From Candidatus Nanopelagicales bacterium (lineage in GTDB: Bacteria; Actinomycetota; Actinomycetes; S36-B12), in assembly GCA_032117435.1 (NCBI GenBank), contig JAULZJ010000092.1, positions 1 to 45,184 of the forward strand: a stretch of DNA of 45,184 bases. The letters are read 5' to 3'. Below are positions 1 to 15,534 of this stretch, in pieces; positions within the stretch are counted from its first letter, which is position 1; the number at the start of each line of letters is the position of its first letter. The notes under the pieces were generated by a model that was not told the DNA's origin, did not search any database, and worked only from the letters and a program-made list of their open reading frames with translations. The position numbers and the translations under genes were made by a program.

Positions 1-178
1 CTGGCTGCATTCCCACCACGCGGAGCGGATCGATTCGCGAGTCGATGCAGGTGACGATGGCCAGGCCGCGGGCGGCGCGTCCGGTGAGATCGCTCCCGGC
101 GTAGCCCGTCGCGTGCTCGTCGTTGGCCGCGAGCACATCCTCGAACGCCTCGATGGGGAAGCGCTTGGAGTCAGGCAT
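1..178 (-). CDS. beta-class carbonic anhydrase, N-terminal part only (gene runs off the left edge)
   Basis: Manual minus-strand translation from ATG (178-176): MPDSKRFPIEAFEDVLAANDEHATGYAGSDLTGRAARGLAIVTCIDSRIDPLRVVGMQP. The C-I-D-S-R zinc-ligand region is typical of beta-CA. The start overlaps the stop of the upstream Rieske gene by 8 nt. Confidence 0.7.
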   Translation of the reverse strand, partial: MPDSKRFPIEAFEDVLAANDEHATGYAGSDLTGRAARGLAIVTCIDSRIDPLRVVGMQP

Positions 179-536
179 CGTCGATCGTCTCCCCTCGGGC
201 ATGGGCGAGCAGGGCCTCGCGCAGCGACCGGGCCTGGCTCGGCGCCGGCAGCTCCACCTCGACCATCCCGTCCCTCACGCGAGCAGGGTAGACCGCCAGA
301 CCGGCTCCCGGTGTTCCCTGGAGCGTGCCGTCGCGCAGGTCATAGCGCCACCAGTGAGATGGACAGGTGATGACGCCGTCGCGGCAGACGCCGCCTTCGA
401 GGGACGCGCCCTTGTGCAGGCACGCTGCGGACACGGCACGCGGATGGCCGTCGACCATGGCAACGAGGACGGGGATGGAGCCATGGTCGAACCTGCGCGG
501 CGCATCTGTGAGGGAGTCCGCCGCGAAGGTGGGCAT
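171..536 (-). CDS. small Rieske [2Fe-2S] ferredoxin-type protein
   Basis: ORF 171..629 trimmed to ATG at 536 (MPTFAADS...), because the longer form would overlap the 4-OT gene. Rieske ligand motifs are C-L-H (CLHKGASL) and C-P-S-H (ITCPSHWW). About 121 aa, the size of oxygenase-associated Rieske ferredoxins. Confidence 0.75.
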   Translation of the reverse strand: MPTFAADSLTDAPRRFDHGSIPVLVAMVDGHPRAVSAACLHKGASLEGGVCRDGVITCPSHWWRYDLRDGTLQGTPGAGLAVYPARVRDGMVEVELPAPSQARSLREALLAHARGETIDDA

Positions 537-562
537 CCATGCGGGCGCCGGGGCGGGGATGC

Positions 563-778
563 TCACGGGGCCGGTGGCGCGACGCCGCCGGGACGCGCGA
601 CGGAGAAGGGCTCGCCGCCGATGCCCCACTCATCCGCGGTGATCTCGTAGATGGCGACGCGGATCCGCTCGAGTGGCACCCCGAGGGTCTCAGCCATGCT
701 GGCACTCAGATTGCGGATGAGGGCATGCTTCTGCTCGGTGGTGCGACCCTCCACCATCGTGACCTGAATCAGCGGCAT
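563..778 (-). CDS. dmpI: 4-oxalocrotonate tautomerase family protein
   Basis: Internal start MPLIQVTMVEGRTTEQKHALIRNLSASMAETLGVP. Catalytic Pro1 directly follows Met, in a typical tautomerase-superfamily beta-alpha-beta unit. It sits downstream of the 4-OD-like gene, as in dmpHI. Confidence 0.85.
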   Translation of the reverse strand: MPLIQVTMVEGRTTEQKHALIRNLSASMAETLGVPLERIRVAIYEITADEWGIGGEPFSVARPGGVAPPAP

Positions 779-1548
779 GCGACCTCCACGGTCCCGAGAC
801 GATCGATGCGGGCGACGACGCTGTCGCCAGGACTCACGGCGAAGGCCGCCGTGCATGCCCCCGACAATACGGTCATACCGGCCTGCAACCCCTCACCCCG
901 GCGTGCCAGCGCGCGGACAAGCCACGCGACCGATGATGCGGGGTGCCCGAGCACGGCCGCTCCCGCAGCCGTCGCGACGACCACGCCGTTGAGCTCCAGG
1001 ACGACACCGAGCAGGCGCAGCTCCAGGCCGATCGGATCGACGACGCTCGAGCCCGTGATGAATCCTGCCGAAGAGGAGTTGTCCGCGATCACGTCCGGCA
1101 GGGTGAACGAGTAGCCCGCGTAGCGGGAATCGAGGACATCGATGGCAGGCATGACCGCCGCCGTGGCCGCGAGGACGTCGGTCGCCCCCACATCCGCGCC
1201 CTCGAGATCATCGCCGATCAGGAAGGCGATCTCGACTTCGACGCGAGGCTGGATGAAGCTCTCGACGACGAGGGGCTCGCCGGGCTCGAGGCGCATGTCG
1301 TCAGTGAGCCAGCCGTACAACGGCTCGCTCACGTTCATCTGCTTCTGCTTGGCCTCGCTAGTGAGTCCCAGCTTGGCCCCCACCACGCGATGCCCCTGTG
1401 CGATGCGGTCGGCGACGACGAGTGCCTGGAGATCGTAAGCCGTCGCGATATCGAAGTCGCCGTAGTCGCTCGTGAGCGCTGTGGTCGCTGTGCGAGTTCG
1501 CGCGGCATCCACGAGGCGGGCGGCGCCCTCCTGGGCAGGGAAGCTCAT
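769..1548 (-). CDS. dmpH: 4-oxalocrotonate decarboxylase (2-oxopent-4-enoate hydratase/decarboxylase family paralog)
   Basis: 259 aa of the FAH/MhpD-like family (GAKLGLTSEAKQKQM...). Its position between the aldolase and 4-OT genes matches the dmpEFGHI order. Confidence 0.8.
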   Translation of the reverse strand: MSFPAQEGAARLVDAARTRTATTALTSDYGDFDIATAYDLQALVVADRIAQGHRVVGAKLGLTSEAKQKQMNVSEPLYGWLTDDMRLEPGEPLVVESFIQPRVEVEIAFLIGDDLEGADVGATDVLAATAAVMPAIDVLDSRYAGYSFTLPDVIADNSSSAGFITGSSVVDPIGLELRLLGVVLELNGVVVATAAGAAVLGHPASSVAWLVRALARRGEGLQAGMTVLSGACTAAFAVSPGDSVVARIDRLGTVEVACR

Positions 1549-2570
1549 GCGGTCACCTCCGCTTCGGCGTGCTTGCGTGCGAGCTCGAGTGCGACGTCGA
1601 TGATCATGTCCTCCTGGCCGCCCACGACCTGGCGGCGACCGAGCTCTAGGAGGATCTCGGAGATCGGCACGTCGTACCGTGCGGCGGCTCGCTCGGCATG
1701 GAGCAGGAAGCTGCCGTAGACCCCGGCATAGCCGAGCAGGAGGCCCGCCCGGTCGATGACCTGCTGACGAGGCATGAGTGGCCGCACCACCTCCTCGGCG
1801 ACATCCATGAGGATCAGCGGGTCGACGCCGGTCTCGATGCCGTACTTCGTGGAAACGGCGGCGAGAATTTCGGTCGGGCAGTTGCCGGCTCCCGCGCCGA
1901 GACCGGCGGAGGTGCCGTCGAGGTTCTTGGCGCCCTCCTCGTAGGCGGCGATGGAGTTGGCCACGGCCATGGAGAGATTGTTGTGGGCGTGCACGCCCAA
2001 GGGGATGTCCAAGGCCGTGACCAGGGCGCTGACGCGGCGGCGCACGTCATCGACGGTCATGGCGCCGGCCGAGTCGGCGATGTAGATCGTGTCCGCGCCG
2101 TAGGACTGCATGAGCAGTGCCTGCTCGACGAGGCCCTCCGGGGAGTTCATGTGGGCCAACATGAGAAAGCCGATGGCCTCCATGCCGAGCTCCTTGGCGA
2201 CCCTGATGTGCTGCTCGGTGATGTCGGCCTCGGTGCAGTGCACGGCGATCCGCGCCACTGAGACGCCGAGCTCGCGCACCTCGCGCAGGTCATCGGCCAG
2301 GCCGATGCCCGGCAGCATGAGGCAGGCAATCTGCGCCTGCTGGGTTGTCTCGCACGCCTTGGCGATCAGCTCCTTTTCTGGCACCGCGGAGAAGCCGTAG
2401 TTGAAGCTCGATCCGCCGAGACCGTCACCGTGGGCGATTTCGATGACCTGCACGCCCGCACGGTCGAGGCCTTCGACGATTTTGATGACATCTTCGGCGT
2501 AGTACTGGTGGCTGATGGCATGCGAGCCGTCGCGCAGGGTCGAGTCGATGAGTCGGTAATCGGTGGTCAT
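1545..2570 (-). CDS. dmpG: 4-hydroxy-2-oxovalerate aldolase
   Basis: 341 aa starting [23 protein letters not shown], with ...[16 protein letters not shown]. This is the HMGL-like TIM barrel typical of DmpG/BphI. It has 4-nt overlaps with both neighbours. Confidence 0.95.
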
Positions 2571-3475
2571 GCCGTGGCTCCTCTGTGCTCCGCGATGGCC
2601 TCGCCGACGCGCATCGCGGCAGCTGTCATGATGTCGAGATTGCCGGCATAGGGCGGTAGATAGTCGCCCGCCCCCTCGACCTCGAGCAGGACGACCACGC
2701 GGTGCGGCACCACTCCACCGGGGGTGTTGTAGGGCCCCTCCTCGATGACGGGCGGATTCTTCAGCCGGTAGCCGGGCACGTACTGAGCGACGTCCTTCTC
2801 CATGGAGTAGACGGACTCCAGCACGGCATCGTGGTCCGTCCCCTCGGGCAGTGCCCCGAAGACCGTGTTGCGCATCATGATCGGCGGTTCCGCCGGATTC
2901 AAGATGATGATGGCCTTGCTCGTATCCGCACCACCGATCTCGCGGAGCGCGGTGGACGTCGTCTTCGTGAATTCATCGATGTTCTGACGCGTGCCCGGCC
3001 CCGCCGACTTGGACGACACGGTCGAGACCATCTCGGCGTACGGAAGGGACGGGATGGCACGTCGAATGGCGTAGACCATCGGCGTCGTCGCTTGGCCACC
3101 ACAGGTGACCATGTTGATGTTGGGTGCGTCGAGGTGCTCCGTGAGGTTGACGGCCGCGATGACCTTGGGTCCGCGTGCCGCCGGGGTGAGGTCAACAGCG
3201 GTGATCCCGGCATCGGCGTACTTCTTGTAATAGCGCACGTGCACATAGGCGCTCGTCGCATCGAAGACCATGTCGAAGTCGTCAGGATGGTCGAGGATCC
3301 AGTCGGGACCCTCGTGCGGCGCGTCGAGTCCCAGTGCCTTGGCCCGGGCCAGGCCGTCGGAGGCGGAGTCGATGCCCACGAGGGCGGTGAGTTGCAACTT
3401 GTCGCTGCGCAGCATCTTGACCATGAGGTCGGTCCCGATATTGCCGGAGCCGACGATGGCGCAACGTGGGGGCAT
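2567..3475 (-). CDS. dmpF: acetaldehyde dehydrogenase (acetylating)
   Basis: Internal ATG at 3475 gives [24 protein letters not shown]...[14 protein letters not shown], which carries the DmpF/BphJ signatures. The longer ORF to 3931 is Arg/Pro-rich and non-homologous. Confidence 0.95.
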
Positions 3476-3507
3476 GGATTCTTCCCTTCTCGTGGGTGAA
3501 CGGCTGA

Positions 3508-4299
3508 TCATGTGGTGCGCACGGTGATCGGGCCGAGTCGATCGAAGTCGGCGCGGAAGACGTCGCCTGCCTGGAAGGGAACGGCGGCGTGTAGGGCGCC
3601 CGTCATGATGATGGCCCCCGCGGGAAGGGCGACCCCGAGCGGGTGGAGCGTGTTGGCAAGCCAGGCGACGGCATCGATAGGGCCGCCGAGCGCGGCCGCG
3701 CCTGCGCCCGTCGCGACCAGCTCGCCATTGCGGGTGAAGACCATGCCGATGAGGGCGGGATCGAAGTCGGCGAGCGGCACGACCGTGCGTCCGAAGGCAA
3801 CGGCGCCATTGGAGGCCAGGTCCGAGATGGTGTCCGCCAGCGTGATCTTCCAGTCGGCGATGCGACTGTCGACGATCTCCAAGGCAGCGACAAGGCCGCG
3901 CGTCGCCTCCCAAGCTTGCGTGACCGTGCAATGCGGGCCCGAGAGCGGCGTGTCGAGCACGACGCAGATCTCGGCCTCCATGCGCGGCGCGATATAGCGG
4001 TCGGTCGGGACCTCTCCGCCATCGGCGTAGACGGTCGATCCCAGGACGGGCGCATAGTCGGGTTGGTCCACCCCGAGCATCTCCTGCATCGGCTTGCTCG
4101 TGAGCCCGAGCTTGTAACCGATGATGGTGTCGCCTTCGGCGAGCAGGCCTTCCACCAAACCCTGCTGGACGGCGTAGGCGTCTACGACGGTCATGCCCGG
4201 AAAGCGATCGGTCAGGGGAGCGATCGGCGTTCGATCTCGGCGCGCGGCGAGCAGCGCCTGCGACATCTCGCGGACCTGATCTGCGTTGGGTCTGGTCAC
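3508..4299 (-). CDS. dmpE: 2-oxopent-4-enoate (2-keto-4-pentenoate) hydratase
   Basis: 263 aa ([32 protein letters not shown]...), MhpD/XylJ family. It is first in a dmpEFGHI-ordered block. Confidence 0.85.
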
Positions 4300-5120
4300 G
4301 GGCTTCCCTCTCCTGCGGATCGTCGGGGTGTTCGTGGATCTCGGTAGCCGAGGCGACGACTCACCGCCATGGCCGCGTCGACGGCAGGCCTGGCGAAGCG
4401 ACGGAGCGAGTCGCTTCCGAGACGCTGCACGGGGCCGACGATCGAGAGAGCCGCGATCACGTCACCGCGCTCATTGCGCACGGGAGCCGCGATGGAGGCT
4501 GCCCCCAACTCGGACTCGTTCACATTCTCGGCCCACCCCTGGCGTCGGATCTCCACGAGAGTGCTGCGCAAGGCCCGTGGATCGGTGATCGTGTACGGGG
4601 TCTTGCGCTCGAGTCGCCAGCCGTGCAGCAGGGCGTCCAGTTCCTCCTGTGGCAGGTAGGCCAGGAGGAGTTTGCCCGTGCTGGTGCAGTGTGCGTCGTT
4701 TCGGTGGCCGACGCGGCCAAAGAGACGCAGCGTCTGCGGGCTCTCCCGCCGCTCGACGTAGACGACCTCGCGCCCATCGAGGACGGCGACCTGGACCGTC
4801 TCCCTAGTGGCATTGCGCAGTTGGTCGATGACGGGCGAGCAGGCCTCGTGGAGGTCGTTATGGAGCGCGACCGATGCACCTAACTCGTACATCGCAAGGC
4901 CCAGGCGGTACGCTCCCGTGTCGGGATCCTGCTCAAGGAGACGCTCTTCGGCAAGCGTGCTCAGGAGCCGATGCGCGGTGCTCTTGCCGATCCCCAGGCG
5001 CCGTGACAACTCGGTGACGCCGATGTCCCGGTCGCCCCGGCCGAACTCCTTGAGTAGGCGCGCCGCATTGCGCACGCTGGACAGGGTGGAGTGCTGCCGT
5101 CGAGGCTCCGGGGCGGTCAT
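4296..5120 (-). CDS. IclR-family transcriptional regulator
   Basis: ATG at 5120 gives [26 protein letters not shown]...[23 protein letters not shown]. This is a winged HTH followed by an IclR effector domain ([21 protein letters not shown]). The ORF extension to 5525 was rejected. Confidence 0.9.
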
Positions 5121-5800
5121 GGCGCTGTCCTCAGGTGCTGCAGCAGGGCACGGCGTGCGTCCGCTGGATCGACATCGGGGCCCAGGTCGAGGCCGGGGGC
5201 GACGGCCTGGGCGAGCAGTACCTGTGAGCGAGGTAGGCCGGCGACATGCGCGCCCTGCATCTCGTCGACGAGTGACTCGCGTCCCGGTGCATGCGCACGA
5301 ATGGCGTCGAAGTCCCGCGCTGCCGCTGCATGGGAGTGCGCGAGACCGGTGCCCGCGTGCAGGGCATGGTGGGCAGTGAGGCTGCTGCCCGGGGGGACTG
5401 CCAGGTGGTAGACAACGGTGCGAATGCCGAGTGCGCGGCGTACCTCGTTGTGATTCGGGCCCCCAGACTCGTCGATGAGCCCGAGGTCGGGTGCGACGAC
5501 AGGGTCGAAGAAGCGCAGTGTCCACGCGACGTCTTGCAGGGAGTCCTGCAGCTGCACCTCCTGGCCGGAGGGTGCGGGGAGTGACTCCACCGTGCCGATC
5601 ACGTGGAGCATGCGTGCGCCGGCGGCAGCGACGGTGAGGCCCTCCGCCGATGTGAGCGGGAGTCGTGCGCGCTCCGCGGGGGGAAGGGTGAGGACGGCGT
5701 CGAGGTAGGCCTGATGCAGCGCACGGACATAGTCGGCCATGGCCTGGCGCATCGCCTCGGGTCCCTCCACGCGCGGGAACGTATCAGATACGTCCCGCAT
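5117..5800 (-). CDS. hypothetical protein, first gene of the minus-strand operon (start uncertain: 5800, 5752 or 5821)
   Basis: ORF 5117..5926 trimmed because the 5' end would overlap the divergent dioxygenase start. High GC3. The stop overlaps the iclR start in an ATGA arrangement. His-rich segment HHALHAGTGLAHSH. I recognise no family. Confidence 0.5.
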   Translation of the reverse strand: MRDVSDTFPRVEGPEAMRQAMADYVRALHQAYLDAVLTLPPAERARLPLTSAEGLTVAAAGARMLHVIGTVESLPAPSGQEVQLQDSLQDVAWTLRFFDPVVAPDLGLIDESGGPNHNEVRRALGIRTVVYHLAVPPGSSLTAHHALHAGTGLAHSHAAAARDFDAIRAHAPGRESLVDEMQGAHVAGLPRSQVLLAQAVAPGLDLGPDVDPADARRALLQHLRTAP

Positions 5801-5830: not shown

Positions 5831-5885
5831 GGGCACCCTAGATTGCGAACCACGAGAGCGGCCATCCGGCCCGAGGGGAGCGACG

Positions 5886-6794
5886 ATGGGAATCCTGCGC
5901 TTGGCGCACGTCGACATCACGGTCACGGATCTCGATCTGGCGTCTGCGTACTACACCGAGGTCATGGGCATGCTCGAAGTCGAGCGCGACGACAACTCGG
6001 TCTACCTGAAGTGCTGGGACGAGGTGGACCATCACTCCCTGCGCATCTCCTACGCGCCGCGCGTGGGCTTCGATCTCATGTCCTTCAAGGTCCTGCGCGA
6101 GGACGATCTCGCCGACCTCGAGAATGCCGTCGGCAAATACGGCTTCCCCGTGGAGCGCATCAGCAAGGGTTCGTCCATCGGCCAGGGCGAGTCCATCCGC
6201 TTCGAAACTCCATCCGGTCAGGTCATGGAACTCGTCCACGACGTGGAGAAAATCGGCCGCGCCACGGGATCACTGAATCCCGCGCCCTTCGCCGAAGGAA
6301 TGCGCGGCATCGCGCCACCGCGGATGGATCACCTCCTCGTCACAGCGGAGGAGGTCGGGGAGTCCACTAAATTCTTCACGGACGTGCTGGGGTTCCGGGT
6401 CACGGAGCAGTTGCTGGACGGTGATGGGCATCAGGCGGCGACGTGGATGGAGCGTTCGCACTCCCCGCACGACCTCGCGATCGTCTCGGGGCCCAATGGA
6501 GGTCTCCACCACTTCGCCTACTGGCTGGACGACTGGGATCACGTGCGTCGCTCGGCTGACATCCTCGCGTACAACGGCATCCAGATCGACGTGGGTCCGA
6601 CGCGTCACGGCATCACGCGTGGCAACACCATCTACTTCTTCGACCCGCTCGGCACGCGCAACGAGGTGTTTACTGGCGGCTACCGTCCCGATCCGGATTT
6701 CCCGACCATCACGTGGACCGAGGACAACATCGGACGGGCCGTCTTCTACTACGAGGGCGAGCTCAACGAGAGATTCATGAAGGTGCACACCTGA
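5886..6794 (+). CDS. catechol 2,3-dioxygenase (type I extradiol dioxygenase), paralog 1
   Basis: ATG at 5886 follows GGGGAG. MGILRLAHVDITVTDLDLASAYYTEVMG...HHFAYW...YFFDPLGTRNE shows two-module VOC architecture with His/His/Glu metal-ligand contexts. Confidence 0.9.
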   Translation: MGILRLAHVDITVTDLDLASAYYTEVMGMLEVERDDNSVYLKCWDEVDHHSLRISYAPRVGFDLMSFKVLREDDLADLENAVGKYGFPVERISKGSSIGQGESIRFETPSGQVMELVHDVEKIGRATGSLNPAPFAEGMRGIAPPRMDHLLVTAEEVGESTKFFTDVLGFRVTEQLLDGDGHQAATWMERSHSPHDLAIVSGPNGGLHHFAYWLDDWDHVRRSADILAYNGIQIDVGPTRHGITRGNTIYFFDPLGTRNEVFTGGYRPDPDFPTITWTEDNIGRAVFYYEGELNERFMKVHT

Positions 6795-7705
6795 TGTCGA
6801 TACTGCGTCTGTCCCATGTCGAGATCAAGGTCCCCGACCTCGAGCTCGCCACCGCGTACTACACCGAGGTGGTCGGGCTCGTCGAGACCGCCCGCGAGCC
6901 TGAGCGCGTGTATCTCAAGTGCTGGGATGAGCATCAGCATCACTCGCTCGTCCTTGCCTACTCCCCGTCCTATGGCCTGGCACATATGGGCTGGAAGGTC
7001 GAGAGCCTTGAGGATCTCGACTTCTATGCTGCTCGACTCCAGGAGGCCGGTATTGCCGTCACTCGGCTGGCGGGGGCGGACGTCGGGATCGGCGGGGGCT
7101 CGGTGGTGCGCTTCGAGACACCTTCGGGCCACCAGATGGAACTCATTCACGGGATGGAGCAGGTGGGCAACCTCCTCCCGCTCACCAATCCCCCTCCTCG
7201 CCCCATGGGTCTTGTCGGTATCGCTCCTCCGCGGCTGGACCACATCTTCATCACCGTCGAGAACGTCAACGGCATGACGACCTTCCTCCAGGACGTCCTG
7301 GACTTCCACCTCACGGAGCAGGTGATGGGAGACGATGGCTTCCAGATAGCGACCTGGCTCGAGGTCTCGCACTCCTCCCACGACATCGCCCTTGTCACCG
7401 GACCCGACGGCGGACTCCATCACTTCGCCTTCTGGGTCGATGACTGGAATGACATCCGTACGGCATCCGATGTCCTCGCCTATCACGGAGTCAGGATCGA
7501 GACCAACCCCACACGCCACGGAGCCACCCGTGGGCATTGCGTCTACTTCTTCGACCCTGCGGGCAATCGCAACGAGGTATTAACCGGAGGATATTGGGCT
7601 GATCCGGACGAGCCGCCCATCACCTGGACCGAGGGTGAGATGGGCAGGGCGCTGTTCTATTACGACGGCGTCGTCAACCAGCGCTTCCTCACGGTGCACA
7701 GCTAG
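6794..7705 (+). CDS. catechol 2,3-dioxygenase (type I extradiol dioxygenase), paralog 2
   Basis: The start overlaps the paralog 1 stop (TGATG). MSILRLSHVEIKVPDLELATAYYTEVVG...HHFAFW...YFFDPAGNRNE aligns collinearly with paralog 1. Roughly half or more of positions are identical by eye. Confidence 0.9.
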   Translation: MSILRLSHVEIKVPDLELATAYYTEVVGLVETAREPERVYLKCWDEHQHHSLVLAYSPSYGLAHMGWKVESLEDLDFYAARLQEAGIAVTRLAGADVGIGGGSVVRFETPSGHQMELIHGMEQVGNLLPLTNPPPRPMGLVGIAPPRLDHIFITVENVNGMTTFLQDVLDFHLTEQVMGDDGFQIATWLEVSHSSHDIALVTGPDGGLHHFAFWVDDWNDIRTASDVLAYHGVRIETNPTRHGATRGHCVYFFDPAGNRNEVLTGGYWADPDEPPITWTEGEMGRALFYYDGVVNQRFLTVHS

Positions 7706-7712
7706 GAGTCCC

Positions 7713-8819
7713 ATGACGATGACCGAGCCCGATCTCCCGGTGACGCTCCCGCGCACCGAGCGCCCCGATGCCCCGGCGTACCTGCAGAAGTACCTCGATC
7801 GCGAGGCCCGAGGCGCCCGCCCCGGTGTCGCCGTGTCCGCCCAGGCTGGCGATGAGACCCCGCTCTACCTGCGCCGCTTCCGCGACCGTCGCACGACGGG
7901 TACGGTGCTCGATTCCCCCGTGCCCCTGTGGGAGGGAGCGGATGTGGGTGCCACGCGTGCCTGGGCCGAGGTCACGCGCACGAAGGAGATCGTGCCGGAG
8001 CGCAAGGACCAGACAAAAGCGGCCGTCACCGACGTCTACTTCGTCCGTCACGGCGAGACCCAGGGCTACTCCACGGAGTCCGGTCTCACCCCGCTGGGCT
8101 CGTGGCAGGCGCATCGACGCGGCAAGGAGCTCGCCCGCCGAATCATGTCCGGACACCACGTCACCATGGCCTGCGCCAATACCAACCGCGCGCGGCAGAC
8201 CGCCGAGGGCATCCGCAAGGGCATGCTCGACGAACTCGTGCTCTTCGGCCGCGATGCCACTGTCGGCGAGGTGGAGGCCTACGAGGAGTTTCGCAATTTC
8301 CAGGTGATGACCCCTGATGGGTTCCGCGATGTCACGCAGGCGTTTCGCGCCTACCACGCGGAGATGGAGAAGTACGAGCGCATCGGGCTGGGTGGCCGGC
8401 CCACGTGGCTGGTCGAGGTGGATCGATTCTGGGGCATCCAGCAGGCCGGCGGCGATCCCATCACCCACTGGCTGACGATGCCGATGCTCACCTTCGAGCC
8501 CCCGGTTGCGGCGGTCCGACGCTTCTGGGCCGGGCTCATGCGACTCCACGCCGAGACGCCCGGTCAATCCGTGATCGTGGCGACGCACTCCGGGCCGATT
8601 CGAGCCTTCGCCACCTGGGCGCTGGGCTACGACCCGGGTGAGCCCTTCAACACCGAGTTCGTGCGCGTGCGACTGCTGGAGGGTGGCGAGACCGCTCTGG
8701 TTCTCTACCGCAATCGCGTGCAGGAAGTGTCCGTGCCCGACTTCGACGGCTTGCCCGACTGGTGGGCCGGCCTCGAGGGACGTGCCCTCCCAGTGAGTCG
8801 ACGGGGGGAGTCGTCATGA
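7713..8819 (+). CDS. histidine phosphatase (phosphoglycerate-mutase-like) family protein with ~110-aa N-terminal extension
   Basis: AGGAG lies upstream of ATG 7713. The RHG catalytic motif (YFVRHGETQG, His codon 8049-8051) appears only at residues 112-114. A second conserved His lies in IVATHSGPIRAF. The stop overlaps the next gene's start (ATGA). Confidence 0.8.
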   Translation: MTMTEPDLPVTLPRTERPDAPAYLQKYLDREARGARPGVAVSAQAGDETPLYLRRFRDRRTTGTVLDSPVPLWEGADVGATRAWAEVTRTKEIVPERKDQTKAAVTDVYFVRHGETQGYSTESGLTPLGSWQAHRRGKELARRIMSGHHVTMACANTNRARQTAEGIRKGMLDELVLFGRDATVGEVEAYEEFRNFQVMTPDGFRDVTQAFRAYHAEMEKYERIGLGGRPTWLVEVDRFWGIQQAGGDPITHWLTMPMLTFEPPVAAVRRFWAGLMRLHAETPGQSVIVATHSGPIRAFATWALGYDPGEPFNTEFVRVRLLEGGETALVLYRNRVQEVSVPDFDGLPDWWAGLEGRALPVSRRGESS

Positions 8820-9895
8820 GTGGTTACACGATGTGGTTCGAGGGCTACTGGCCAGGACTCAAGGGCGAGGTCGGCGGCAAGGCAGCGAGTCTCGGCGAGA
8901 TGACCGGCGCCGGCCTGCCCGTGCCCCCCGGGTTCGCCGTCACGACCGCGGGCTACCGAGCCGCACACGATGCCGCAGACCTCGACGCCACCCTCGCGCG
9001 CCTACTCCACGGGCTGGATGTCTCCGACACCGCCCAGGTGAGCGCGGTTTGCGGTGAGATCCGCGATGCCATCCGCCAGATGCCGCTCCCGACAGAAGTC
9101 GAGCAGCAGATCAGGCACGACTACGACGAGTTGTCTCGGCGGTGCGATGTGGGAGATATCCCCGTTGCCGTGCGATCGTCGGCAACGTCGGAGGATTCGC
9201 CTGATGCGTCATTCGCCGGTGAGCATGACACGTACCTGTGGATCCGCGGGGGCGACGCCGTCGTCGACGCGGTAAGGCGTTGCTGGGCCAGCCTCTTCAC
9301 CGATCGCGCGACCTGCTATCGGGTGGAGATGGGCTACGAGCACCGCTCGGTCGAAATGGCCGTGGTGATCCAGAAGATGGTTCGTCCGATCGCCGCGGGC
9401 GTGGCGTTCACACTGAATCCATCCAACGGTGATCGTTCGCAGGTAGCGGTCGACGCCGCCTGGGGCTTCGGGGAGGGAGTGGTCTCGGGTGAGATCACAC
9501 CGGACAACTTCCTCGTGGACAAGGTGATGCTCGAGGTGAGCAAGCGCGAGATCAGCCATAAGGCACATGAGTACTGCCTCTCCGACCACGACACGGTGGA
9601 GAAGGTGGAGACGGATCCGGAACGGGCCGATAGCCCGTGCCTCACCGATCCCCAGCTCAAGGCAATCGCCACGCTCGCGAAGACCGCGGAGAGACACTAC
9701 GGCTGCCCCCAGGACATCGAGTGGGCGGTGGATGCCGATCTCGCTGATGGAGACAACGTCATCCTCCTTCAGGCGCGGCCCGAGACGGTGTGGAGCAAGA
9801 AGCAGCGGAAGTCCGTCGCGGGTTCCGCGGACAAGAACCCCATGGCAAGCATCGTCTCGACATTGATGAATCCGCTGTACGCGCGCAAGGACTAG
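8816..9895 (+). CDS. PEP-synthase/PPDK N-terminal ATP-grasp domain protein (phenylphosphate synthase beta-subunit-like)
   Basis: 359 aa carrying the PPDK_N signatures GGKAASLGEM, VAVRSSATSEDSPDASFAGEHDTYL, CWASLFTDRA, MAVVIQKMV, WGFGEGVVSGEITPDNF and QDIEWAV. It has no swivel-His domain and no PEP/pyruvate domain. Confidence 0.85.
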   Translation: MSGYTMWFEGYWPGLKGEVGGKAASLGEMTGAGLPVPPGFAVTTAGYRAAHDAADLDATLARLLHGLDVSDTAQVSAVCGEIRDAIRQMPLPTEVEQQIRHDYDELSRRCDVGDIPVAVRSSATSEDSPDASFAGEHDTYLWIRGGDAVVDAVRRCWASLFTDRATCYRVEMGYEHRSVEMAVVIQKMVRPIAAGVAFTLNPSNGDRSQVAVDAAWGFGEGVVSGEITPDNFLVDKVMLEVSKREISHKAHEYCLSDHDTVEKVETDPERADSPCLTDPQLKAIATLAKTAERHYGCPQDIEWAVDADLADGDNVILLQARPETVWSKKQRKSVAGSADKNPMASIVSTLMNPLYARKD

Positions 9896-9970
9896 TGAAG
9901 GATCGCACCACTAAGAGCAAGGTCACACGCTTCGTGCCCCCCGGACACGAACCCACGAGAGGAAATGCAG

Positions 9971-11782
9971 ATGGCCGATCGGTTCCCCAGCCCGTTCGAC
10001 ATCGAGACGCCTGCGGGCGCCGAGGGTTGGCAAGACATGTACGTCTACTCCTCGCTCTTCAGCGAGTCTCGCAAGGAGTTCGAGGATTCGATCTTCTGGT
10101 TCCAGGACGGAGTTCACTGGCCCAAGGTCCTCACGCCCTGGGATGCGACCTTCTACGAATTCGCGATCGCCTCGCTGTCGCAGTACAACACCCGACATCT
10201 CCAGGTGCCCCCGGCCAACGGCATCGCCTTCCGCATCCTCAACGGCTACGGCTACCTCACCCCCGTGCCCGCGGATCCCGCGACTATCGAGACCCGCGTC
10301 GAGAACTTCATGGATCGCGCCGGCTTCTACTTCATGAACTGGAACGATCTCTACGACAAGTGGATGATCAAGATCCGCGACCTGGTGAAGGAACTCGAGA
10401 GTGTGAACTTCGAGCCTCTGCCGGAGATCGAGGATGCGGACGACATCGTCAAGTCCGGCGCGGGCCTCGGATCCGGCTACCACATCCAGGAGAACTACCG
10501 CACCCTCCTCGACCTCGCACTGAAGCTGTGGAACTACCACTTCGAGTTCCTCAATCTTGGGTACGCCGCCTACCTCGACTTCTTCGGCTTCTGCAAGCAG
10601 GCCTTCCCGGGCATCCCGGACCTGGCCATCGCGAAGATGGTCGCTGGCGTCGAGGTCGACCTCTTCCGTCCCGATGAGGAGCTCAAGCGCCTTGCCCGGG
10701 TCGCGCTCGAGAGCGGTGTCGCGGAAGCGTTCGCCGTGGGCGATGTGGAGCAGACCTGCGAGATCCTCAAGGGCTCGGATGCCGGGCGTGCCTGGATCGC
10801 GTCGTTCCAGGAGTCCGCAGAGCCGTGGTTCAACTTCTCGACCGGCTCGGGCTTCTACCACTCCGACAAGATCTGGATCGAGAACGTCGAGATCCCCTTC
10901 GAGTTCATCAACGACTACATCGTCAAGCTGCAGTCCGGCGAGGATCTGGCCCGCCCGATGGCGGCGATCCACGCCGAGCGAGATCGCGTCGTGGGCGAGT
11001 ACACCGAGCTGCTGGCGACCGATGAGGATCGCGAGGCCTTCCAGGCAAAGCTGGGGCTTGCGCGCGTGGTCTTCCCCTACGTGGAGAACCACAACTTCTA
11101 TGTCGAGCACTGGAGTCACTCGGTGATCTGGCGCAAGATGCGCCAGCTGGGCGAGGTCTTCGTCAAGGAGGGCTTCTGGAGCGAGCCCAATGACATCTTC
11201 TATCTCAAGCGCACCGAGGTTGAGGATGCTCTCTGGGACTACTACGTCTCCTGGGCGACGCCGGAGCCGGCAGCTGGCCCGGGCCGCTGGCCGGCGATCA
11301 TCGACAAGCGCAAGGGCATCGTCAAGGCCCTGAGCGCCTGGAAGCCGGTGCCGGCGCTCGGAGCGCCGCCCGAGGTGATCACCGAGCCCTTCACCGTCAT
11401 GCTCTGGGGCATCACCTCGGACAGCGTCGGTGCCTGGCTCGGTGGTGGCGACGCCAAGGAGGGGGAGCTGCGCGGCATGGCGGCCTCGCCCGGCCTGGTC
11501 GAGGGGCCAGCCCGCGTGATCTTCTCCCCGGAGCAGATCGGCGAGATCCAGCAGGGCGAGATCCTCGTGGCCCCGCTGACGGCACCCTCGTGGGCGCCGA
11601 TCTTCGGCAAGATCCTGGCGACGGTCACGGACACCGGCGGCATGATGAGCCACGCCGCCATCGTCTGCCGCGAGTACGGCCTGCCGGCCGTCACCGGCAC
11701 GGGCTTCGCCACCACCAACATCCAGACGGGCCAGCGCATCCGCGTCGACGGCAACAATGGAGTCGTCACCGTCATCGAGTAG
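9971..11782 (+). CDS. PEP-utilising-enzyme mobile (phospho-His) domain protein with large N-terminal domain (phenylphosphate synthase alpha-subunit-like)
   Basis: The last ~105 aa (GMAASPGLVEGPARVI...TDTGGMMSHAAIVCREYGLPAVTG) are a swivel domain with its catalytic His codon at 11651-11653. The ~500-aa N-terminal region is not recognisable as a PEP/pyruvate TIM barrel. ATG 9971 has better AGAGGA spacing than ATG 9965. Confidence 0.8.
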   Translation: MADRFPSPFDIETPAGAEGWQDMYVYSSLFSESRKEFEDSIFWFQDGVHWPKVLTPWDATFYEFAIASLSQYNTRHLQVPPANGIAFRILNGYGYLTPVPADPATIETRVENFMDRAGFYFMNWNDLYDKWMIKIRDLVKELESVNFEPLPEIEDADDIVKSGAGLGSGYHIQENYRTLLDLALKLWNYHFEFLNLGYAAYLDFFGFCKQAFPGIPDLAIAKMVAGVEVDLFRPDEELKRLARVALESGVAEAFAVGDVEQTCEILKGSDAGRAWIASFQESAEPWFNFSTGSGFYHSDKIWIENVEIPFEFINDYIVKLQSGEDLARPMAAIHAERDRVVGEYTELLATDEDREAFQAKLGLARVVFPYVENHNFYVEHWSHSVIWRKMRQLGEVFVKEGFWSEPNDIFYLKRTEVEDALWDYYVSWATPEPAAGPGRWPAIIDKRKGIVKALSAWKPVPALGAPPEVITEPFTVMLWGITSDSVGAWLGGGDAKEGELRGMAASPGLVEGPARVIFSPEQIGEIQQGEILVAPLTAPSWAPIFGKILATVTDTGGMMSHAAIVCREYGLPAVTGTGFATTNIQTGQRIRVDGNNGVVTVIE

Positions 11783-11801
11783 GACCATCGCTTCACCTCT
11801 C

Positions 11802-11835
11802 GGGTGAGGAGGGGACCAAAGCCCCCTCCTCACCC
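11802..11835 (+). terminator. perfect 13-bp GC-rich hairpin after the PpsA-like gene (possible intrinsic terminator or attenuator, no U-tract)
   Basis: GGGTGAGGAGGGG (11802-11814), loop ACCAAAGC, CCCCTCCTCACCC (11823-11835). Confidence 0.4.
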
Positions 11836-11836
11836 T

Positions 11837-11876
11837 GGGTCCCGCGAGGAGGAACGACCACCTCCCCGAGGGACCC
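11837..11876 (+). other. second imperfect hairpin in the same spacer
   Basis: GGGTCCCGCGAGGAGG (11837-11852), loop AACGACCA, CCTCCCCGAGGGACCC (11861-11876). 14 of 16 positions pair. Confidence 0.3.
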
Positions 11877-11943
11877 GGCAATCCCTCATGTGAGCCGCAC
11901 TACCCGGTAGCGTCGAGTCACCGGAGACCTGGAAGGACCGCCC

Positions 11944-13203
11944 ATGCTGACCGTGGAGCAGAACGAAGAACTCACTCGTGTTGGCCCCGGCACCCCGATG
12001 GGGGAGTTGCTGCGCCGCTACTGGTACCCCATTGCCTTCGAGCAGGATTTCGACACGGTTCCGACGAAGACCGTGCGCCTGCTCAGCGAGAACTGGACGC
12101 TCTACAAGACGCCCAAGGGCGGCAAGTACGGGATCGTCGCCGAGGCGTGCCCCCATCGCAGTGCTTCCCTGACCTACGGCGTCGTGCACGAGGACGGGAT
12201 TCGCTGCGGCTACCACGGTTGGAAGTGGGACTTCGAGGGCAATTGCGTCGAGCAGCCGGCGGAGGCGGACAACCAGAACTTCCGTGATCGTGTCAAGCAG
12301 AAGGCGGGCAAGGCCGAGGTCATGGGCGGCATGATCTGGGTCTACGTCGGGCCCGACCCAGCGCCGGAGCTCCCGCGATTCGATGTCTTCGTCATGGACG
12401 GGGTCAAGGACTGCGGCTACGCCACCCTTCCGTGCAACTGGCTTCAGATCATGGAGAACTCCGTCGATCCCCACCACGTGGAGTGGTTGCACGGCTACTA
12501 CTTCAACTTCATGGGGGAGACTCAGGGCTTCGATGCCCCGAAGGCCTTCCAGAAGAAGCACCTCAAGACCGGCTTCGAGGAGATGGAATGGGGCATTCTC
12601 AAGCGGCGTGTGCTCGAGGGTGGTTCGGAGGAGAATGACGACTGGAAGGTCGGCCATCCACTGGTCTTCCCCTACTTCATGCGCGTGGGTGGCGCGGGTA
12701 TCGACCAGATGCAGATCCGCGTGCCCGTCGACGACCGCACGACGTGGAAGCTCTTCTACTCCAATCACGCTCCCGACGCTGGCGCGTGGGAGGCGCAGGA
12801 CCGGCCCGTCGTCTACGAGTACTTCTGGCGTGACGACGAGGGTCGCTTCATCACCGACTACATCGAGGGTCAGGACATCATGGCCTGGGTGAGCCAGGGG
12901 CCGGTCACCGACCGCACGCAGGAGCATCTCGGCCGCTCGGATGCCGGTGTGGCAATGCTGCGCAAGATGTTCAAGGAGAACATGAAGCGGGTCGCCAACG
13001 GCGAGGATCCACTCGGCACCATCCGTGAGAAGCACGACATGATCCCGCTGCCCTGTGAGCGCGACAAGTTCGGCGCCGAGCGCGAGTTCGCCGAAGCCTT
13101 CATCACGATGGGCTCCATGCGCTATAGCCCGCAGAGGCAGCAGCTACTCGACCTGCATGCTGATGCCTGGGCTCGACGCGAGAAGGCCGCCGCGGGTGCG
13201 TGA
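11944..13203 (+). CDS. Rieske non-heme-iron oxygenase, alpha-subunit-only type (phthalate/PaO-like family)
   Basis: 419 aa. The Rieske motif is CPHRSASL...CGYHGWKW (Cys codon 12148-12150). The mononuclear iron motif is NWLQIMENSVDPHHVEWLHG. GGAAGGA precedes the ATG. No beta-subunit gene follows. Confidence 0.9.
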   Translation: MLTVEQNEELTRVGPGTPMGELLRRYWYPIAFEQDFDTVPTKTVRLLSENWTLYKTPKGGKYGIVAEACPHRSASLTYGVVHEDGIRCGYHGWKWDFEGNCVEQPAEADNQNFRDRVKQKAGKAEVMGGMIWVYVGPDPAPELPRFDVFVMDGVKDCGYATLPCNWLQIMENSVDPHHVEWLHGYYFNFMGETQGFDAPKAFQKKHLKTGFEEMEWGILKRRVLEGGSEENDDWKVGHPLVFPYFMRVGGAGIDQMQIRVPVDDRTTWKLFYSNHAPDAGAWEAQDRPVVYEYFWRDDEGRFITDYIEGQDIMAWVSQGPVTDRTQEHLGRSDAGVAMLRKMFKENMKRVANGEDPLGTIREKHDMIPLPCERDKFGAEREFAEAFITMGSMRYSPQRQQLLDLHADAWARREKAAAGA

Positions 13204-13276
13204 TGACATCGATGGGAATCGCAGTCGGGCCGGCGGAGCCGCCCCGCTTGGCGATCCGAGTCCGGCGAGGATCCCC

Positions 13277-13531
13277 TTGAGCGACCTCCCGCCTGACCCC
13301 CACCGGCTCCCGCCTCCGGGGGCGTGGTTCGCCGGTGATGCAGAGCGGCACCTGCTCGACAAGCCGAAGTTCTGCCCCATGTGCGCTGCCAGCATCGAGG
13401 TGCACGGTGGCATCTCCACGGAGTACTGGGTGTCTGACCAGCGGGTCTTCATGACCTGGTGTGGTGAGTGCGGGTGGTTCGGCGATGTCGTGCGCTACGA
13501 CATGGTGACTATCACCGAGGAGGAGCACTGA
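13277..13531 (+). CDS. small 4-Cys zinc-ribbon/rubredoxin-like protein (start uncertain: TTG 13277 or GTG 13196)
   Basis: This is the C-terminal part of ORF 13055..13531: LSDLPPDPHRL...KFCPMCAASIEVHGG...MTWCGECGWFGDVV...EEEH. GC3 is high from about 13277 onward and lower upstream. GAGGA lies 5 nt before the TTG. Confidence 0.5.
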   Translation: MSDLPPDPHRLPPPGAWFAGDAERHLLDKPKFCPMCAASIEVHGGISTEYWVSDQRVFMTWCGECGWFGDVVRYDMVTITEEEH

Positions 13532-14169
13532 CCGCTCTCGTCTTCGACTTCGGCGGTCCTGTCCTGCTCACCCCCTTCGAGTTGCGCTCCGTGGGCGAGA
13601 GGTCGCTGGGCCTGGAGCCGGGCACCTTCGCGTGGACCGGGCCCTTCGGCCCTGACTCCGATCGCGACTGGGTCGACTTCCAAGCCGGCGCCATGAACGA
13701 GCGAGATTACTGGGCTCGTCGGTGCCAGGAGTTCCACGCTCTCAGTGGCGAGCCCGCGCAGATGCCCGCCTTCATGGCGCACCTGTACTCGGGCACCGAG
13801 GAGGAGTTGGTACGTCCTGCCGCACGTGAGCTCATTGCGGATGCCAAGGCCGCGGGCATCCCAGTCGGGATGCTCACCAATGACCTCACGGCGTTCCATG
13901 ATCAGTCATGGCTCGACCGGATGACGATCCTGCGCGAGTTCGACCAGATGGTGGACGGGCGCACGGACGGTGTACTCAAGCCCGACCCCCGCGCGTACCT
14001 GCTGATGGCTGAGCGGCTGGGTGTCGACGCCACCGAGTGCGTCTTCATCGATGACCAGCCGGGCAATATCGCGGGTGCGCAGGCGGTCGGTATGCGTACC
14101 GTGCACCTGGACCCGGTGGATCCCGAGCCGGGCTTCGTGCAGGCCCGGCACATGCTCGGTCTCACCTGA
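13468..14169 (+). CDS. HAD-superfamily phosphatase/hydrolase (subfamily IA-like)
   Basis: Motif I is VFDFGGPVL, followed by MLTNDL and then KPDPRAYLLMAERLGVDATECVFIDDQPGNI. The ORF-track start is GTG 13468. A CTG at 13528 preceded by GAGGAGGAG would give a typical short N-terminus. Confidence 0.8.
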   Translation: MRVVRRCRALRHGDYHRGGALTALVFDFGGPVLLTPFELRSVGERSLGLEPGTFAWTGPFGPDSDRDWVDFQAGAMNERDYWARRCQEFHALSGEPAQMPAFMAHLYSGTEEELVRPAARELIADAKAAGIPVGMLTNDLTAFHDQSWLDRMTILREFDQMVDGRTDGVLKPDPRAYLLMAERLGVDATECVFIDDQPGNIAGAQAVGMRTVHLDPVDPEPGFVQARHMLGLT

Positions 14170-14178
14170 GGAGGAGAG

Positions 14179-15534
14179 ATGACCCGTCCCTTGCGCGTGG
14201 CCGTCATCGGGTCAGGCCCGTCCGGGATGTACGCCGCCGACGCGTTGCTCGCCCAGGAAGACATCCCGGTGTCCGTGGACATCATCGACAAGCTGCCGAC
14301 CCCCTTCGGCCTGGTGCGCTACGGCGTGGCCCCGGACCACCTGAGCATCCGCTCGGTGCGGGACACGCTCGACAAGGTGCTCGACCAACCCGGCGTGAGG
14401 TTCCTGGGGAATGTCGAGGTGGGCGTCGACATCAGCCTGCCTCAGCTTCGCCAGTTCTACGATGCGATCGTCCTGACGTACGGCGCCTCGCGTGATCGAC
14501 TGCTCGGGATCCCTGGAGAGCAGCTGGCCGGCAGTATCGCCGCGACGGACTTCGTCAATTGGTACACGGGACATCCCGACATGGACCCCGAGGCGTTCGT
14601 CGACTTCCTGACATCATCATCGCGCGTGGCCGTGATCGGCGTGGGGAATGTCGCGGTCGACGTCACGCGTGTGCTGTCCAAATCCCCGTCGGAGATCGAG
14701 CACACGGACATGCCGGACCACGTATTCACTGCCCTGCGGGCTTCAGGCGTGCGTGATGTGCATCTCATCGGTCGGCGTGGGCCTGCTCAGGCCACGTGGA
14801 CGACGAAGGAGTTGCGCGAGTTGGGTGATCTCGAGGCCACGCAGGTGCTGATCGCCGAGGGCGCCTCGGTCGACGACCCGGCCAGTCAGCGAGCGATCGC
14901 GGGAGACAAAGCGGTGGCGCGCAATGTCACCGTGGTCGAGGGTTGGAGTGAGCGCATCGAGGATGGTCGTGAGCGACGTATCCACCTGCATTTCCGCTGC
15001 CGTCCAGTCGAGATCCTGGGTGCCGAGCGCGTCGAGGGGCTCGTCGTCGAGGTCACCGAGGTCGACGAGGCCGGACAGGCGACCGGGACGGGAGATACCC
15101 ACGTCATCCCCGTCGATGCCGTGATCCGCAGCGTGGGCTATCGCGGCACCTCAATAGCGGGCGTGCCCTTCGACGACCGTCGCAATGTCATCCCCAACGA
15201 CCAGGGTCGTGTGATGGACGGCGAGGAGCGCGTGCCCGGCTTGTACGTCGCCGGTTGGATCAAGCGCGGCCCCACGGGGATCATCGGCACCAACAAGAAG
15301 GACGCGGTGCAGACCGTCGCCTGCCTGATCGAGGATCTCGCAGACCCTGCGACATGGACAGCGACGCGTCCGGATCCCGCGGATGTGGACGCTGCCCTGA
15401 GCGGCCAGCGTGTGGTGGACATCGAGGGGTGGCGACGCATCGATGCCGCGGAGCGTGCCCTGGGCGCCTCATGCGGCCGAGAGCGCACAACCCTGCATGA
15501 ACGTCCGGCCATGCTGGCGGCTGCCGCCGACTAG
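14179..15534 (+). CDS. NADPH-ferredoxin reductase, FprA/adrenodoxin-reductase type
   Basis: 451 aa. It has VAVIGSGPSGMYAA (FAD GxGxxG), VAVIGVGNVAVDVTR (NADP) and GWIKRGPTGIIGTNKKDA. GAGGAGGAGAG precedes the ATG. Confidence 0.9.
   Translation: MTRPLRVAVIGSGPSGMYAADALLAQEDIPVSVDIIDKLPTPFGLVRYGVAPDHLSIRSVRDTLDKVLDQPGVRFLGNVEVGVDISLPQLRQFYDAIVLTYGASRDRLLGIPGEQLAGSIAATDFVNWYTGHPDMDPEAFVDFLTSSSRVAVIGVGNVAVDVTRVLSKSPSEIEHTDMPDHVFTALRASGVRDVHLIGRRGPAQATWTTKELRELGDLEATQVLIAEGASVDDPASQRAIAGDKAVARNVTVVEGWSERIEDGRERRIHLHFRCRPVEILGAERVEGLVVEVTEVDEAGQATGTGDTHVIPVDAVIRSVGYRGTSIAGVPFDDRRNVIPNDQGRVMDGEERVPGLYVAGWIKRGPTGIIGTNKKDAVQTVACLIEDLADPATWTATRPDPADVDAALSGQRVVDIEGWRRIDAAERALGASCGRERTTLHERPAMLAAAAD

Follow-up and report, generated by a model that had tools for sequence, protein, structure and literature searches.

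The contig analysed here, JAULZJ010000092.1 of a Candidatus Nanopelagicales bacterium (GenBank assembly GCA_032117435.1; 45,184 nucleotides, referred to at its full length as the window), carries two adjacent genes whose products very probably form a two-component small-molecule dikinase for phenolic compounds, of the type represented by PpsAB, CreHI, HpeHI and AcvAB. We call the ATP-grasp subunit beta and the larger subunit, which bears the phospho-histidine swivel domain, alpha. In the operon around them, as throughout a large, tightly syntenic group of Actinobacteria, a phenol dikinase is joined by a Rieske oxygenase, a pair of phosphatases and the enzymes of catechol meta-cleavage. The account that best explains the whole, which we consider moderately probable, is that a phenol is converted by the dikinase to an aryl phosphate, which is oxygenated and dephosphorylated to a catechol that then enters meta-cleavage. 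The kinase architecture itself is not novel because it belongs to a described and named family: enzymes of this type have been known since 2004, and their formal recognition as a subfamily dates from 2025. The novelty lies in the clade and in its operon setting. A preliminary description of the gene pair, made from the DNA letters, overlooked both the named family and the fact that the operon says more about the role of the enzyme than the pair does.

Pfam PPDK_N covers residues 18–336 of the 359-residue beta subunit (profile positions 3–322 of 328; E 1.2e-112), and a PDB sequence search aligned the protein with 9GOJ at E 5e-77. This entry is the crystal structure of HpeI, which forms the ATP-grasp part of the hydroxyphenylethanone kinase from Rhodococcus. 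The ATG of the beta gene overlaps the stop codon of the histidine-phosphatase gene upstream (ATGA). The alpha open reading frame, taken mechanically, begins at ATG 9965 and encodes 605 residues. We prefer ATG 9971, which gives 603 residues, because its distance from the GAGGAA ribosome-binding site is more favourable and because it fits both the N termini of homologues (MADRFPSPF) and their length of 603 residues. Pfam PEP-utilizers, the swivel domain, covers alpha residues 528–599 (E 3.8e-24). E-values of this size lie well outside what chance would give. The preliminary description had placed the ATP-grasp half, with its PPDK_N blocks, in a 359-residue protein and the swivel domain in the last ~105 residues of a separate 603-residue protein encoded at 9971..11782, and it was right in each of these respects. 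Separate genes also encode the kinase subunits in the related loci inspected.

The catalytic, phospho-carrying histidine lies within TDTGGMMSHAAIV and is His563 in the 605-residue numbering, H561 in the 603-residue numbering. All 25 homologues compared and every reference subfamily keep it. Its codon is 11651–11653, within GGMMSHAAIV, as assigned in the preliminary description. The published signature of the subfamily is T/SxxGGxxxH with Met in place of the regulatory Thr at position −2 (PMC12167813). The alpha motif T555-D-T-G-G-M-M-S-H563 fits this signature, with Met561 at −2 and Ser562 at −1; CreH and PpsA also have Ser at −1 (PMC12167813).

We determined what precedes the swivel domain from profile searches and from an AlphaFold2 (AF2) model of alpha built from 25 homologues (predicted local distance difference test score, pLDDT, 81; predicted template-modelling score, pTM, 0.79). 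In NCBIfam, alpha is matched over its full length by the PRK08296 'hypothetical protein' families, at 829 bits against a cutoff of 650. Foldseek against the PDB returned Listeria rifampin phosphotransferase (RPH) for all six top matches (5fbt, 5fbu, 5hv1 and related entries), with ~620 aligned columns, E 1.4e-16, a query-normalised TM score of 0.6 and identity of ~17%. RPH is the only PDB entry whose fold matches alpha at full length, across its rifampin-binding and swivel parts, whereas for PPDK, phosphoenolpyruvate (PEP) synthase, pyruvate kinase and Enzyme I the alignment is confined to the ~120-residue swivel domain. The N-terminal ~500 residues of alpha are therefore a helical, RPH-type acceptor module and not a TIM barrel. 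This agrees with the preliminary description, which had proposed an acceptor-binding module here, had likened the pair to a split RPH and had suggested the structure prediction and Foldseek comparison that now retrieve the rifampin-binding domain.

The same description had found no PEP/pyruvate TIM barrel in the pair, and none was detected in either kinase protein by Pfam, NCBIfam or PDB sequence searches for PEP-utilizers_C, nor by Foldseek on the alpha model. A third gene supplying this domain is rejected, since Pfam found no PEP-utilizers_C in the neighbouring genes or in the open reading frames of at least 200 residues scanned elsewhere in the window; the products of the large reading frames scanned have housekeeping functions or belong to the meta pathway. 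The probability of a split PEP synthase or PPDK with its PEP/pyruvate domain in trans, or of an RPH-like resistance kinase, is negligible. NCBIfam PEP-synthase and RPH models do match both proteins locally, and the fold is that of RPH; yet the scores fall far below the curated cutoffs (111 and 274 bits for the two proteins with the RPH model NF041857, cutoff 999), the alpha matches of the PEP synthase, RPH and prodigiosin-ligase models are confined to the swivel region, identity to RPH is low and the genes stand in a catabolic operon.

A search with the N-terminal 495 residues of alpha against 1.84 billion cluster representatives retrieved 1405 clusters (319 at E <= 1e-30), mostly of proteins of 600–625 residues. 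One relative, P0121, is a 970-residue protein in which PPDK_N is fused ahead of the acceptor and swivel domains; its identity is 52% with one window protein and 60% with the other, given in the order ATP-grasp, then swivel subunit. The split architecture and the fused, RPH-like one therefore coexist and interconvert.

Two-component small-molecule dikinases are a named subfamily comprising PpsAB, CreHI, HpeHI and AcvAB (PMC12167813, PMC9618137). Its members pair a PPDK_N ATP-grasp subunit of ~40 kDa with a subunit of ~70 kDa that bears the catalytic histidine. HpeHI was characterised by Dexter et al. (J Biol Chem 2025; PMC12167813), and the subfamily also includes the AcvAB enzyme from Sphingobium SYK-6 (10.1101/2022.04.28.489975). 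We measured identities against relatives defined by gene context on annotated plasmids, which stand in for the biochemically characterised CreH (WP_011013724.1), HpeH, Thauera PpsA and AcvA. Over 99% of its length in each case, alpha is 53% identical to the swivel protein of Rhodococcus oxybenzonivorans pRB98, 47% identical to PpsA of Azoarcus sp. KH32C pAZKH and 43% identical to an Hpe/Acv-type protein on a Rhizobium plasmid with biotin carboxylase genes; for beta, identity is ~48% with the cre-like counterpart and 47% with the PpsB-like one. The pRB98 cluster has the cre gene content (IclR, cytochrome P450, ATP-grasp gene, swivel gene, short-chain dehydrogenase/reductase, ferredoxin, reductase, HD phosphohydrolase and aldehyde dehydrogenase), and that of pAZKH is a genuine pps-ppc cluster (ppsA, ppsB, a CBS protein, ppcBDAG and UbiD/UbiX). 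Across the window alpha and the cre-like, Pps and Hpe/Acv-like subfamilies, 105 positions are invariant. The likeness to phenylphosphate synthase seen in the preliminary description is thus borne out by the alignment with Azoarcus PpsA. In neighbour-joining trees of both subunits, drawn without support values, the sequences linked to the Rieske oxygenase form one clade, with at least 67% identity between alpha subunits, and the nearest neighbour is the cre-like sequence.

The setting of this clade is strongly conserved. The window has a GC content of 64–71%, and the genomes most closely related to it are metagenome-assembled ones that bear the label Candidatus Nanopelagicales or Actinomycetota. 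A scan of one genome per species yielded at least 553 stretches that encode a relative; the context analysis covers the best 80 of these loci (66–98% identity), searched by tblastn with every window gene. They span Nanopelagicales, Nocardioides (including PD653-B2), Micromonospora, Blastococcus, Longivirga, Streptosporangiaceae, Pseudonocardiales and Acidimicrobiia; cultured carriers include Nocardioides sp. PD653-B2, Longivirga aurantiaca, Blastococcus jejuensis and Micromonospora globispora. A full ten-gene core without any change of order is shared by 49 loci, the window counted, and almost all of the others are cut off at contig ends; all 80 are compatible with one collinear block. The core consists of genes for an IclR regulator and a conserved hypothetical protein on the minus strand and, on the plus strand, for two catechol 2,3-dioxygenases (C23Os), the histidine phosphatase, the ATP-grasp and swivel subunits, the Rieske oxygenase, a small protein with four cysteines (4-Cys protein) and a haloacid dehalogenase (HAD) phosphatase. 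Most loci of sufficient length add a Rieske-type ferredoxin, a reductase and Dmp-type genes for the hydratase, acetaldehyde dehydrogenase, aldolase, decarboxylase and tautomerase; the ferredoxin and Dmp-type genes, at 171..4299 in the window, also flank the kinase in related loci. We found no description of a dikinase combined with a Rieske oxygenase, phosphatases and C23O, or of a Rieske enzyme acting on aryl phosphates, in the literature searched, whose coverage excluded subscription journals.

This gene content bears on whether the pair is a PpsAB orthologue proper, whose phenylphosphate product would be carboxylated to 4-hydroxybenzoate, as happens when phenol is degraded anaerobically. 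The shared architecture and the full-length identity to the context-defined PpsA would fit such a role. However, genes for PpsC (CBS) and UbiD-type phenylphosphate carboxylase occur in 0 of the 80 loci, Azoarcus PpsC, PpcA and PpcB queries having no tblastn match there or in the window, the partner genes (Rieske oxygenase, extradiol dioxygenases) are O2-dependent and the trees of both subunits set the clade apart from PpsA. Nor did any locus give a tblastn match to a carboxyltransferase; a biotin-carboxylase query had a single weak match, in locus L054. We therefore regard a PpsAB function as very improbable; gene-content tests strongly disfavour both this reading and that of a PEP synthase or RPH.

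Wherever a locus extends far enough, the Rieske oxygenase gene is collinear with the kinase genes. The nearest solved structure to the oxygenase is the phthalate dioxygenase PDO_KF1 (7fjl; E 1.9e-44); related alpha-only oxygenases (7fhr, 9ina) are also among its nearest solved relatives, and these enzymes bind aromatic carboxylates. The residues of the Rieske cluster and the mononuclear iron ligands are conserved, and five further residues (His177, Gln255, Trp268, His275 and His328) are invariant only in the kinase-linked clade, a suggestive pattern whose interpretation requires a structure. The closest annotated relatives, at 47% identity, are encoded on plasmids of Peribacillus and Burkholderia/Caballeronia, next to genes for Gfo/Idh/MocA oxidoreductases and decarboxylase-type proteins, a neighbourhood typical of dihydroxylating systems for aromatic acids. 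A homologue of the 4-Cys protein, which in the loci long enough to show it lies directly 3′ of the Rieske gene (42–94% identity across loci), also follows the related Rieske gene on the Peribacillus plasmid, where the kinase genes are missing; the small gene is also placed at 10320..10520 of locus L088. Hence the 4-Cys protein, for which neither Pfam nor NCBIfam has a family, seems to be a companion or subunit, so far undescribed, of this subfamily of Rieske oxygenases.

An oxygenase of this class could also serve a CreHI-type pathway in which it replaces the P450 CreJ. Phosphate would then act as a protecting group while the alkyl side chain is oxidised, and a phosphatase would release hydroxybenzyl alcohol or hydroxybenzoate, not catechol. 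The cre-like sequence is the nearest of those compared for both subunits; the succession of kinase, oxygenase with redox partners and phosphatase follows the logic of CreHI, CreJEF and CreD; and the broad Rieske class includes methyl monooxygenases and O-demethylases (Pfam LigXa_C/VanA_C). We nevertheless consider this outcome unlikely. Two C23Os and the catechol meta pathway are strictly linked to the kinase, the annotated loci showed no genes of a hydroxybenzoate or protocatechuate pathway, and an alcohol or aldehyde dehydrogenase of the CreG/CreC type is not in the conserved core, the sole aldehyde dehydrogenase match (11 loci, 35–38% identity to a CreC-like query) coinciding with the semialdehyde dehydrogenase of the meta pathway. 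Cre-like P450 and HD phosphohydrolase queries had no tblastn match in the window or the 80 loci.

We return to the pathway that leads through an aryl phosphate to catechol. By homology with the characterised enzymes, from which the phosphotransfer chemistry is taken, the kinase step can be outlined with high confidence. The beta subunit would bind MgATP, and the alpha swivel domain would dock on it; His563 would attack the beta-phosphate to give a pyrophosphorylated histidine, from which the gamma-phosphate leaves as inorganic phosphate (Pi). On return of the swivel domain to the alpha N-terminal domain, the beta-phosphoryl group would pass to a phenolic hydroxyl, so that the products would be an aryl phosphate, AMP and Pi. 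The conserved operon suggests a simple phenol or a 4-alkylphenol as acceptor, because of the nearness to the cre-like clade and the presence of the tautomerase and decarboxylase branch, although this choice is a guess. The tautomerase and decarboxylase branch of the meta pathway handles catechol and 4-substituted catechols.

The route downstream of the kinase, from oxygenation to meta-cleavage, is deduced from synteny and put forward with moderate confidence, at slightly less than even probability. The aryl phosphate, which as an anion resembles an aromatic acid, would be oxygenated by the adjacent Rieske enzyme, with electrons supplied through the reductase and the Rieske ferredoxin and with the 4-Cys protein as a companion. 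In support of this, the nearest relatives of the oxygenase act on anionic aromatics, as phthalate dioxygenase does. Phosphate could be lost in either of two ways: the HAD phosphatase, the histidine phosphatase or both might hydrolyse the ester once ortho-hydroxylation or O-demethylation has taken place, or an ipso/ortho or enol-phosphate dihydrodiol might eliminate phosphate spontaneously. The resulting catechol would be degraded by the two C23Os and the Dmp-type lower pathway. Three loci have gene annotation (the window, L003 and L004); they showed two phosphatases and no gene for a dihydrodiol dehydrogenase. We tentatively propose, as a possibility somewhat short of likely, an undescribed aerobic 'phosphorylate first' route from phenol to catechol, in which the Rieske oxygenase and its 4-Cys partner would oxygenate the aryl phosphate instead of the free phenol, and in which loss of phosphate, enzymatic or spontaneous, would rearomatise the product to catechol and so replace a phenol hydroxylase and a dihydrodiol dehydrogenase. 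Such a route would be widespread in Actinomycetota, including the abundant freshwater Nanopelagicales, and might act as a high-affinity trap for trace phenols.

Several observations weigh against the pathway through an aryl phosphate to catechol. The acceptor is deduced, and the neighbour-joining trees of the clade carry no support values. No 2-hydroxymuconic-semialdehyde dehydrogenase is encoded in the 45-kb window, even though the tautomerase and the decarboxylase, which follow this enzyme in the pathway, are; in some other lineages the semialdehyde dehydrogenase gene ends the cluster (for example, L004 18914..20389). The arginines with which PDO_KF1 binds phthalate are not recognisably kept in the Rieske protein, Arg207 falling in an insertion and Arg244 aligning with Val, and thus an ability of this protein to bind an anionic phosphate ester can only be presumed. 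Either mode of oxygenation also raises a difficulty: spontaneous phosphate release after ipso/ortho dioxygenation would make two conserved phosphatases unnecessary, and with monooxygenation an ATP-costly phosphorylation is hard to explain, given that ordinary phenol hydroxylases exist.

Moreover, synteny does not give the order of reactions, and the placing of the oxygenase and phosphatase steps is deduced. The kinase could accordingly act later, on an oxygenase product or on a catechol or hydroquinone, or take part with the phosphatases in a detoxification or trapping cycle; two phosphatases beside a kinase could form a futile or regulatory cycle, and HpeHI's Km values in the sub-micromolar range have been read as a sign of scavenging (PMC12167813). 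Against this, a dikinase initiates the pathway in all four characterised systems (PMC12167813, PMC9618137, 10.1101/2022.04.28.489975), and a catechol with one hydroxyl phosphorylated could not, on general enzymological grounds, chelate the iron of an extradiol dioxygenase. We judge a later position of the kinase to be quite unlikely, a shade more so than side-chain oxidation of the Cre type.

The remaining features of the locus are listed in the table. The histidine-phosphatase protein, kept at 55–92% identity across loci, could be an aryl-phosphate phosphatase or a kinase accessory with a PpsC-like role, for example on the pyrophospho- or phospho-histidine intermediate. The HAD reading frame (GTG 13468 or 13474) overlaps the last ~60 nucleotides of the 4-Cys gene in another frame; its start codon is uncertain, the sole other in-frame start-like codon being CTG 13528. 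When both C23Os were aligned with 5znh and 1mpy, every iron ligand and catalytic residue was found to be kept. The tandem paralogues are both conserved across related loci, possibly because they take different catechol substrates or form a heteromer. The reductase is swapped by lineage: it is of the FprA type, the presumed electron donor of the Rieske system, in loci of the Nanopelagicales type, and a fusion of FNR with a plant-type ferredoxin (Fer2) in Nocardioides, Micromonospora, Blastococcus and Alloactinosynnema (for example, L004 14051..15019).

In all complete loci the conserved hypothetical gene is divergent from the kinase operon and upstream of the IclR gene. Its product has 634 homologues, all unnamed and without a Pfam match; it has itself no Pfam or NCBIfam family, and its AF2 model (pLDDT 79.5) gave no significant fold match in the PDB. 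The 162-nucleotide gap between the alpha and Rieske genes contains a hairpin with no U-tract following the stem (RNA fold of 11783–11850: dG −41.9 kcal/mol, z −5.1), which could mark the boundary of a transcript, serve as a site of processing or stabilise the RNA. A consensus scan of 5000–15700 for promoters and terminators found no excess of sites over shuffled sequence.

Features of the dikinase locus, in window coordinates
Feature	Position	Strand	Basis
Rieske-type ferredoxin	171..~560	-	Pfam/NCBIfam
4-oxalocrotonate tautomerase	563..778	-	Pfam/NCBIfam
DmpH-like decarboxylase	769..1548	-	Pfam/NCBIfam
DmpG aldolase	1545..2570	-	Pfam/NCBIfam
DmpF acetaldehyde dehydrogenase	2567..~3499	-	Pfam/NCBIfam
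DmpE-like hydratase	3508..4299	-	Pfam/NCBIfam
IclR-family transcriptional regulator	4296..5060	-	Pfam IclR_C and HTH_IclR
Conserved hypothetical protein, ~227 residues, His-rich motif (YHLAVPPG..LTAHHALHAGTGLAHSH)	5117..5800	-	Synteny
Catechol 2,3-dioxygenase, paralogue 1	5886..6794	+	TIGR03211, 381 bits (cutoff 320)
Catechol 2,3-dioxygenase, paralogue 2	6794..7705	+	TIGR03211, 357 bits (cutoff 320)
Histidine-phosphatase-superfamily protein (RHG motif), ~120-residue N-terminal extension	7713..8819	+	Pfam His_Phos_1, E 3.6e-15
Dikinase beta subunit, ATP-grasp (PPDK_N), 359 residues, counterpart of PpsB/CreI/HpeI	8816..9895	+	Pfam, PDB sequence search
Dikinase alpha subunit, 603 residues: RPH-like acceptor-binding domain (~residues 1–495), then phospho-His swivel domain	9971..11782	+	Pfam, NCBIfam, AF2/Foldseek
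Codon of catalytic (phospho-carrier) His, in T-D-T-G-G-M-M-S-H-A-A-I-V	11651..11653	+	Alignment, published motif
Hairpin, perfect 13-bp GC-rich stem, between alpha and Rieske genes	11802..11835	+	RNA fold
Rieske non-haem-iron oxygenase alpha subunit, 419 residues, phthalate-dioxygenase/LigXa_C type	11944..13203	+	Pfam Rieske and LigXa_C
Small 4-Cys (CxxC...CxxC) protein, ~84 residues, TTG start after AGGA ribosome-binding site	13277..13531	+	Synteny
HAD-IA phosphatase	13468..14169	+	Pfam Hydrolase/HAD_2, TIGR02247-like; conserved in block
FAD/NAD(P)H reductase, adrenodoxin-reductase/FprA type	14179..15534	+	Pfam Pyr_redox_2

If the proposed route through an aryl phosphate to catechol is correct, it would be a third catabolic use of aryl phosphates, beside carboxylation (Pps, Hpe/Acv) and P450 side-chain oxidation (Cre), and would add a new class of substrate for Rieske oxygenases. 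It would also give a function to the PRK08296 'hypothetical protein' family and to genes annotated as 'pyruvate, water dikinase' in many freshwater and soil Actinomycetota. Estimates of which organisms degrade phenolic and lignin-derived compounds in lakes would improve as a result.

Among the known systems, CreHI, the 4-cresol/4-alkylphenol dikinase of Corynebacterium glutamicum (represented here by pRB98), is the most similar to the window pair. Both have two subunits, with the ATP-grasp gene ahead of the swivel gene, the GGMMSH motif is identical and the pRB98 proteins have the highest identity among the relatives compared. The operons are alike in their logic, a kinase step followed by an oxygenase with redox partners and then a phosphatase, under an IclR regulator. 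The components differ, however: the window has a Rieske oxygenase and a Rieske ferredoxin where Cre has the P450 CreJ with CreEF, and phosphatases of the HAD and histidine-phosphatase types where Cre has the HD-domain CreD. A dehydrogenase of the CreG/CreC type is outside the conserved core of window-type loci, in which catechol meta-cleavage lies downstream.

PpsAB(C) of Thauera/Aromatoleum, for which Azoarcus KH32C pAZKH stands in, shares the two-subunit architecture, the histidine motif and extensive full-length identity with the window pair. Its mechanism, beta-phosphoryl transfer through a pyrophospho-histidine to yield AMP and Pi, is presumed to be common to both. In contrast to the window, the Pps gene order is reversed, with ppsA before ppsB. 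The window has neither PpsC nor a UbiD-type phenylphosphate carboxylase, and its setting is aerobic and oxygenase-dependent. The hydroxyphenylethanone (acetovanillone) dikinases HpeHI and AcvAB have the same two-component architecture and a HAD phosphatase in the operon, and the AlphaFold model of HpeH is reported to have an RPH-like acceptor domain and a swivel domain, as in the window alpha. They are more distant in identity (~43%) and differ in context, since the window lacks genes for a biotin-dependent carboxylase or a CoA ligase and its HAD is of another subfamily, with no tblastn match to the NagD-like HAD.

RPH (5fbt, 5hv1) has the same three modules, an ATP-grasp domain, a helical acceptor-binding domain and a histidine swivel domain, and its fold corresponds to the whole of alpha. 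Unlike the window enzyme with its two proteins, RPH consists of one polypeptide of ~860 residues (~17% identity) that accepts a large ansamycin and serves antibiotic resistance rather than catabolism. Finally, the ATP-grasp and swivel domains are homologous to those of PEP synthase and PPDK (PPDK_N, PEP-utilizers). The window pair differs from these enzymes in having no PEP-utilizers_C TIM barrel and in the Met that replaces the regulatory Thr two residues before the catalytic histidine.

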